A DNA stretch of 64,000 nucleotides from assembly GCF_054482595.1 (NCBI RefSeq), contig NZ_CM137008.1; one strand, given 5' to 3'. How positions within the stretch are numbered: position 1 is the first letter of the stretch; each line of letters starts with the position of its first letter. Below the pieces are notes generated by a model. The model saw only the letters and a list, made by a program, of their open reading frames with translations, had not been told where the DNA came from and did no database searches. Made by a program: the position numbers and the translations under genes. Below are positions 47,196 through 47,566 of this stretch, piece by piece.

Positions 47196-47317
47196 CGCAC
47201 CAAAGCCGGTAATTCAAAAATCACCCATTCAGGTGATTCCCAGCCACCAGCAATGCGCGAAAAATCGACAATGTTCCTCTGGAACAAATGAAACATAACC
47301 TGATAAAGGTGGTAAAA

Positions 47318-47566
47318 ATGAAGCCTTATTTTGCTGCTTTGATGTTATCAGTCTCTGTTCTTCCTGCTTATGCTGGTCCGCTCGGTACTGCTGATAAAGC
47401 CGACCTACCGCAAAGCAATGTCTCCAGCCCAATGATGGCCCAGTCGCTCAGGCAACCAGACCTGCAACCGATATCGACGGACAGGAAGACAGAATGTTTT
47501 CGCCTTTACACACCAGATCGCAAACCGGGGGTGAACTGCGTTCCTGATGGCTCAACAGGCCATTAA
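47318..47566 (+). CDS. yjbT: Small secreted protein with signal peptide
   Basis: ATG at 47318 with AAAGGTGGT RBS; MKPYFAALMLSVSVLPAYA signal peptide; in-frame alternative ATG at 47288 has a weaker RBS. Confidence 0.5.
   Translation: MKPYFAALMLSVSVLPAYAGPLGTADKADLPQSNVSSPMMAQSLRQPDLQPISTDRKTECFRLYTPDRKPGVNCVPDGSTGH

Follow-up and report, generated by a model that had tools for sequence, protein, structure and literature searches.

The translation start of the small Escherichia coli gene yjbT is probably 30 nucleotides downstream of the annotated one

The gene and its locus

A small open reading frame of the Escherichia coli chromosome can be read from two in-frame ATG codons, at positions 47288 and 47318 of the window (the whole stretch of 64,000 nucleotides analysed here). 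Which of the two starts the protein? The reading frame lies in a region with the gene order xylE (45089-46564, plus strand), psiE, a REP-containing spacer, the reading frame itself, and yjbH. The genes concerned are:

46608-47018, minus strand: psiE, upstream of yjbT and divergent from it
47288-47566, plus strand: yjbT reading frame as listed, 92 aa from ATG 47288, with the stop codon TAA at 47564-47566
47318-47566, plus strand: yjbT coding sequence from the conserved start, the in-frame ATG 47318; 82 codons and the TAA stop
47613-49709, minus strand: yjbH, 698 aa, convergent to yjbT

A preliminary description of this DNA, made from the letters alone, had reported a "yjbT-like" frame of 82-92 aa convergent to yjbH. 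The size and orientation are as it said, and the gene is yjbT itself (b4620, Pfam PF17089), i.e., an already known gene. The PF17089 profile matches the 92-aa form with 215.2 bits and the 82-aa form with 193.5 bits (gathering threshold of 27 bits), the sequence is nearly identical to that of K-12, and it occupies the K-12 position between psiE and the convergent yjbH. The encoded protein is identical to a common allele of E. coli and Shigella, and belongs to the same 90% cluster as the UniProt entry YJBT_ECOLI. The sole protein difference between the two is R3H, inside the disputed N-terminal extension, where the window carries the H3 allele. The K-12 record gives yjbT (b4620) 279 nt and the name "PF17089 family protein YjbT", and PGAP labels the same 279-nt frame "periplasmic protein" or "hypothetical protein". 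YjbT is not represented by an NCBIfam model. Mentions of yjbT or b4620 in the literature included none on function, and one merely uses YjbT as a marker feature of E. coli.

Of 5426 complete E. coli genomes, 5416 matched the yjbT region, 5414 of them over at least 80% of the 601-nt query. The b4620 transcript was found in all seven RNA-seq samples of one study (PMC3734233). The preliminary description remarked that small periplasmic proteins of this type are often missed or mis-started in annotation. The first half of the remark does not apply, since yjbT has long been annotated as b4620; the second half does, because the upstream ATG is probably the wrong start. The 92-aa form is used by the K-12 RefSeq annotation, PGAP, UniProt and the Pfam model, and some annotators have already deposited the 82-aa form (P0016).

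Homologues in other genera begin at the downstream ATG

We searched for homologues with a word index of 5.8 billion proteins, in one genome per bacterial or archaeal species, and with a HMMER profile in 1.84 billion cluster representatives. The family is very small: the profile search returned only 12 matches. Its members are found in other Escherichia, Kluyvera georgiana, a second Kluyvera-like lineage, Buttiauxella izardii, another Buttiauxella, Pseudocitrobacter, Shimwellia pseudoproteus, and one further lineage. The arrangement psiE-yjbT-yjbH occurs in Escherichia, Pseudocitrobacter and one other lineage. Elsewhere the neighbours are not conserved; hence they offer no guilt-by-association lead, and there is no necessary link between yjbT and yjbEFGH.

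All seven lineages outside Escherichia begin at the position of M11 of the 92-aa E. coli form, with the pattern M-[KRT]-x-Y-[FW], and these homologues align to positions 11-92 of the PF17089 profile only. We infer that the first ten positions of this 92-position model reflect Escherichia sequences. The preliminary description had preferred the downstream ATG, and had named conservation of the ten-residue extension across homologues as the observation that would speak against this choice. We made this comparison, and found the extension in no homologue outside Escherichia: the ten residues before M11 are not conserved in the other genera. Kluyvera lacks the upstream ATG, and a 1-nt indel (ATAAAGG vs ATAAGG) shifts the frame of everything upstream. 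Pseudocitrobacter, Buttiauxella sp. and Shimwellia have in-frame stop codons 21, 24 and 18 nt before the conserved ATG, respectively, and a ten-residue extension is therefore impossible in these lineages.

The sequence immediately before the conserved ATG behaves differently from a coding extension. In every lineage a Shine-Dalgarno sequence (SD) is found at the same spacing, and its pairing energy is between -6.5 and -12.8 kcal/mol. E. coli and Kluyvera agree fully in the stretch CTGATAA(A)GGTGGTAAAAATG, and since it shows no third-position wobble it is conserved as a ribosome-binding site and not as codons.

Public start calls are inconsistent across the family, with lengths of 92, 85, 82, 81, 76 and 75 aa. 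For example, the homologues of Kluyvera georgiana (L012 / P0048) and Buttiauxella sp. (P0037) are annotated with different starts that are probably wrong, one giving 85 aa from a GTG inside the SD, and another 81 aa, including a 5-residue extension. The start problem is therefore family-wide.

Ribosome-binding sites and polymorphism within Escherichia

The two candidate starts differ in their signals for ribosome binding and in the variation of the sequence between them:

47288-47317, plus strand: disputed 10-codon extension MKHNLIKVVK, from the upstream ATG; most likely 5'UTR containing the SD
47306-47313, plus strand: SD AAGGTGGT, 4 nt before ATG 47318, pairing with the 16S 3' end (anti-SD) at -9.3 kcal/mol

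The pairing energy of ATG 47318 is among the best 3.6% of all ATGs in the window, whereas that of ATG 47288 (-3.3 kcal/mol) is at the 43rd percentile and hence no better than chance. The much better ribosome-binding site that the preliminary description saw at the downstream ATG is thus confirmed. An in-frame GTG at 47309 lies inside the SD of ATG 47318 and has no SD of its own.

We compared 14 distinct Escherichia haplotypes from 19 sequences. Downstream of 47318 there are 15 synonymous polymorphic sites, all at third positions, and four non-synonymous ones. The 30-nt extension has four non-synonymous sites and one synonymous site (Fisher p = 0.028 against the rest, a small test). Ten of the 19 sequences entered the comparison through a gene call of 82 aa, and this route may favour variants close to the upstream ATG; without these ten, the extension has two non-synonymous sites and one synonymous site. 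The polymorphism density of the extension (16.7 per 100 nt) is the highest in the locus, and second codon positions are affected in K2T, R3H, V8E and ATG>AGG. The last change removes the upstream ATG in one natural strain (L023), where the gene is otherwise intact. In two sequences (L015, L017) the change GTG>GAG (V8E) turns the SD into the perfect consensus AAGGAGGT, and would add a Glu to the supposed n-region of the signal peptide; judging from the sequence, this variant fits a function in ribosome binding better than one in coding. Within Escherichia, the extension varies like non-coding DNA, and the rest of the gene shows third-position synonymous variation.

Homologues, SD pairing and polymorphism all favour the ATG preferred in the preliminary description. 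We conclude, with a probability of about 0.85, that the main start of yjbT is ATG 47318 and not the annotated ATG 47288. The K-12 record, which starts 30 nt earlier than the supported start (92 instead of 82 aa), is thus probably placed too far upstream. Translation would proceed from ATG 47318 via the strong SD four bases before it, and the 30 nt between the two ATGs would be a 5' leader. The last 20 nt of this leader would be conserved at the nucleotide level as the ribosome-binding site, and the first 10 nt, including the upstream ATG, would be a chance feature specific to Escherichia.

One could instead take ATG 47288 as the true and sole start in Escherichia, with a ten-residue extension acquired in this genus and a 29-residue signal peptide with a long basic n-region. 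Indeed, nearly all E. coli sequences that we examined have the upstream ATG, and so do all four genomes that we found from other members of the genus (Escherichia sp., E. whittamii, E. albertii, and Escherichia sp. E1V33). No stop codon interrupts the frame, this ATG is the one chosen in the reference annotations, and the extension is lysine-rich, as befits an n-region. A 29-residue signal peptide would probably still be functional, and so arguments at the protein level cannot tell the two starts apart. Yet the probability of finding at least one in-frame ATG by chance in the 26 open codons upstream of ATG 47318 is ~0.33, given the trinucleotide frequencies of the window; the presence of the upstream ATG is therefore not remarkable. 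It has no usable SD, and a GTTCC/GGAAC hairpin ends 2 nt upstream of it (see below), whereas the strong SD of ATG 47318 is fully kept. Together with the high polymorphism of the extension, mostly at second codon positions, the natural AGG variant and the restriction of the extension to Escherichia, this makes a sole upstream start very improbable. The supplements of TRAINSPOTTER and INRI-seq contain no entry for yjbT/b4620.

In practice, this amounts to moving the start codon of one E. coli K-12 gene, a small piece of annotation housekeeping that bears on no major open question. The current start has spread to UniProt, to the protein clusters of PGAP and to the Pfam model with its 92 positions. 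With the downstream start, the predicted signal peptide has 19 residues instead of 29, and the predicted mature protein stays the same.

Predicted RNA structures around the gene

Two hairpins were predicted, at the start and after the end of the gene:

47300-47351, plus strand: predicted mRNA hairpin enclosing the SD and AUG 47318; minimum free energy -13.6 kcal/mol, z -2.5
47571-47604, no strand assigned: 12-bp GC-rich hairpin between the convergent yjbT and yjbH, terminator-like on both strands

The first hairpin pairs CUGAU, the SD and the AUG with yjbT codons 2-11. In the consensus 90.9% of cells are paired, compared with 38-59% when the partners are slid, and compensatory changes are seen at four pairs, among them a synonymous TCA>TCT matched by U>A in the leader; this support is modest, as it comes from an alignment of eight sequences from which the structure itself was derived. 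E. coli, both Kluyvera lineages and Pseudocitrobacter adopt this hairpin as their minimum-energy or centroid fold, as does L024 (centroid only). Buttiauxella sp. forms the outer stem only, B. izardii has a shorter SD-pairing stem, and in Shimwellia the hairpin is not formed. The structure is built around AUG 47318 and, if real, again points to this codon as the place of initiation. The hairpin may serve in translational control. The fourU and ROSE-type RNA thermometers are SD-occluding translational hairpins, and the yjbT stem, rich in G.U and A.U pairs, would likewise pair the SD and AUG with the U-rich early reading frame. The yjbT stem is modest (z about -2), and we draw the analogy for the possible mode of action only, claiming no membership in these classes. 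A search of Rfam matched no family to the start hairpin.

The second hairpin has a folding energy of -19.7 kcal/mol (z -5.2) on the plus strand and of -18.0 kcal/mol (z -3.9) on the minus strand. It was passed over by a strict terminator scan, as its T-run is weak on either strand. The Kluyvera loci have hairpins of different sequence after the yjbT stop codon.

The region upstream of yjbT

The spacer between psiE and yjbT contains the following elements:

47122-47212, no strand assigned: REP region between the divergent psiE and yjbT, with one complete REP palindrome and two partial REP-like repeats; variable between strains
47219-47238, plus strand: palindrome AATCACC-N6-GGTGATT upstream of yjbT, which folds as a 7-bp hairpin
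47273-47285, plus strand: palindrome GTTCC-tct-GGAAC, which ends 2 nt before ATG 47288 (helix 1, 83% of cells paired)

The complete REP palindrome spans 47154-47186, with inverted repeats at 47154-47167 and 47173-47186 that are 86% complementary. It is an imperfect, GC-rich intergenic palindrome of the GCCGGATAAG...GCATCCGGC type. The partial repeats are at 47122-47140 and 47194-47212. The Rfam model naRNA4, which is REP-derived, matches 47153-47245 below threshold (29.3 bits vs a gathering score of 59.5). The "REP cluster" of the preliminary description is thus correct as to the REP and overstated as to its size: we found one full copy and two partial ones, not a large cluster. Another REP occurs elsewhere in the window, at 597-627. 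Some E. coli strains lack xylE at this place, and malG directly adjoins psiE (L003). Some strains match our query only from its position 117, i.e., 47216 of the window. As the match starts only there in strains without xylE, the REP-containing spacer (47100-47215) is a variable segment. PGAP annotates a 47-aa "hypothetical protein" on the minus strand (WP_000487766.1, 47144-47287), which overlaps the REP and the upstream region of yjbT and abuts the start of the 92-aa form; it is probably a spurious call.

The two palindromes between the REP region and the gene are conserved across eight lineages, even where yjbT lies next to other genes, and the spacing between them is ~34-35 nt in most of the eight aligned lineages. 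They could correspond to an operator, a 5' mRNA hairpin or a promoter element, and their conservation would suggest a dedicated regulator or a structure in the 5' mRNA. If transcribed, the GTTCC palindrome would put a hairpin where the ribosome-binding site of ATG 47288 must sit.

A scan of 47000-47700 with the sigma-70 consensus gave no promoter, and the text of the Cappable-seq supplement has no positions near 4.2400-4.2401 Mb. On the minus strand of E. coli MG1655, the 92-aa start corresponds to 4,240,055 and the 82-aa start to 4,240,025. The sequence GACAAT (47267-47272) is a possible -10 element that is not consistently aligned across lineages. We rejected a sigma-E promoter (GGAAC ... 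TCTGA): most lineages have a spacer of 11-13 nt, compared with ~16 nt in known sigma-E promoters, and the transcript would start inside the SD. Candidates for sigma-54 (TGGCAC-N5-TTGCA) and sigma-28 (TAAA-N15-GCCGATAA) fit poorly by eye.

These structures also bear on the idea that both ATGs are used, with the upstream one as a minor start, giving two precursors with different signal peptides and the same mature protein. The two ATGs are in frame and possibly on one mRNA, and nothing in the sequence forbids weak initiation at 47288. Furthermore, ribosomes coming from 47288 would read through the hairpin at 47300-47351 and open it, freeing the SD that it occludes. Nevertheless, the arguments from ribosome binding against ATG 47288 apply here equally, and the codons of the extension show no sign of selection. 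In a transcript that begins at the GTTCC palindrome or downstream of it, the upstream AUG would lie near the 5' end of the mRNA, beside a hairpin. We regard a dual start as improbable, and retain ATG 47318 as the main start.

The predicted exported protein

The start at ATG 47318 gives a protein with two recognisable parts:

47318-47374, plus strand: predicted Sec signal peptide MKPYFAALMLSVSVLPAYA, with predicted signal peptidase I cleavage after A-Y-A
47489-47563, plus strand: C-terminal module of 25 residues TECFRLYTPDRKPGVNCVPDGSTGH, almost invariant, with a C-x13-C loop and a putative disulfide

Read from M11, the N-terminus is MKPYFAALMLSVSVLPAYA followed by GP, with an n-region of one lysine and an A-x-A cleavage motif. 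Inspection and hydropathy reveal the three regions of a signal peptide, namely MK, YFAALMLSVSVL and PAYA followed by G, with small residues at -3 and -1. The mean Kyte-Doolittle value of the hydrophobic core is 2.37 for the best 10 residues. All homologues have a small-x-small motif at the cleavage point or at most two positions from it. The clear signal peptide of the preliminary description is thus recovered in its n-, h- and c-regions. Compared with the general class of pre-proteins of Sec and signal peptidase I, YjbT has a short basic MK, a core of ~12 residues, and an A-x-A followed by Gly-Pro; its export and cleavage are predictions here. The E. coli sequence has no lipobox, which rules out a lipoprotein.

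YjbT would thus be made as an 82-aa precursor, from which signal peptidase I would remove the 19-residue Sec-type signal peptide to leave a 63-aa protein, probably periplasmic. The predicted mature protein (63 aa, 6.8 kDa, pI 6.75), with GPLGT as its expected N-terminus, is identical from either start, and the choice of start therefore alters only the length of the signal peptide.

As judged from codon comparisons, the evolution of YjbT is sharply bipartite, with a fast N-terminal half and a near-invariant C-terminal module. Between E. coli and the Kluyvera-like copy (L004), the last 25 codons differ by 18 synonymous and no non-synonymous changes, whereas mature residues 20-57 show 29 non-synonymous and three synonymous codon differences. 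Throughout the family, exactly 13 residues separate the two cysteines, and the motif PG-[VIL]-N-C-[VI]-P-D (more generally, PG-x-N-C-x-P-D) is kept. The AlphaFold2 model, based on an alignment of seven sequences, has a pLDDT of 50 and no secondary structure, and a profile search of PDB sequences gave nothing related even at E = 10. The fast-evolving N-terminal half is probably unstructured. The two cysteines of the module may be joined by DsbA into a disulfide-closed loop, which could act as a binding surface on a flexible tether. YjbT, as a small predicted periplasmic protein with a strikingly conserved C-terminal loop, is of mild interest for the biology of small proteins.

A further reading, which we offer as tentative and think rather unlikely, is that yjbT is a self-contained regulatory and secretory cassette of a few Enterobacteriaceae. 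Its active part, the C-terminal loop C[FY]x[LIVF]x3[DE][RH]xPG[VIL]NC[VI]PD, would then serve as a periplasmic ligand or inhibitor, and the hairpin over the SD and AUG would gate its synthesis together with the two palindromes, which would move with the gene from one genomic context to another.

Finally, the frame might not be a functional protein gene at all, being instead a chance reading frame or a decaying remnant. The taxonomic range is very narrow, the protein has no structural or functional annotation, the AlphaFold model is of low confidence, and some assemblies carry frameshifted copies (P0006, P0010-P0013). Yet a chance or decaying frame accounts neither for the complete lack of non-synonymous differences in the C-terminal module across genera, nor for the excess of synonymous sites (15 vs 4) within Escherichia. 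Even in lineages with other neighbouring genes, yjbT keeps its SD, start codon, signal peptide and terminator hairpin; nearly all complete E. coli genomes contain the region, and the gene is transcribed. The substitution pattern effectively refutes this possibility, and yjbT is a real, stand-alone gene under purifying selection, for a small, probably exported protein.

The frameshifted variants were deposited from E. coli-derived assemblies; they keep the N-terminus of YjbT and continue in another frame from mid-gene. They may be assembly errors or cases of occasional pseudogenisation.
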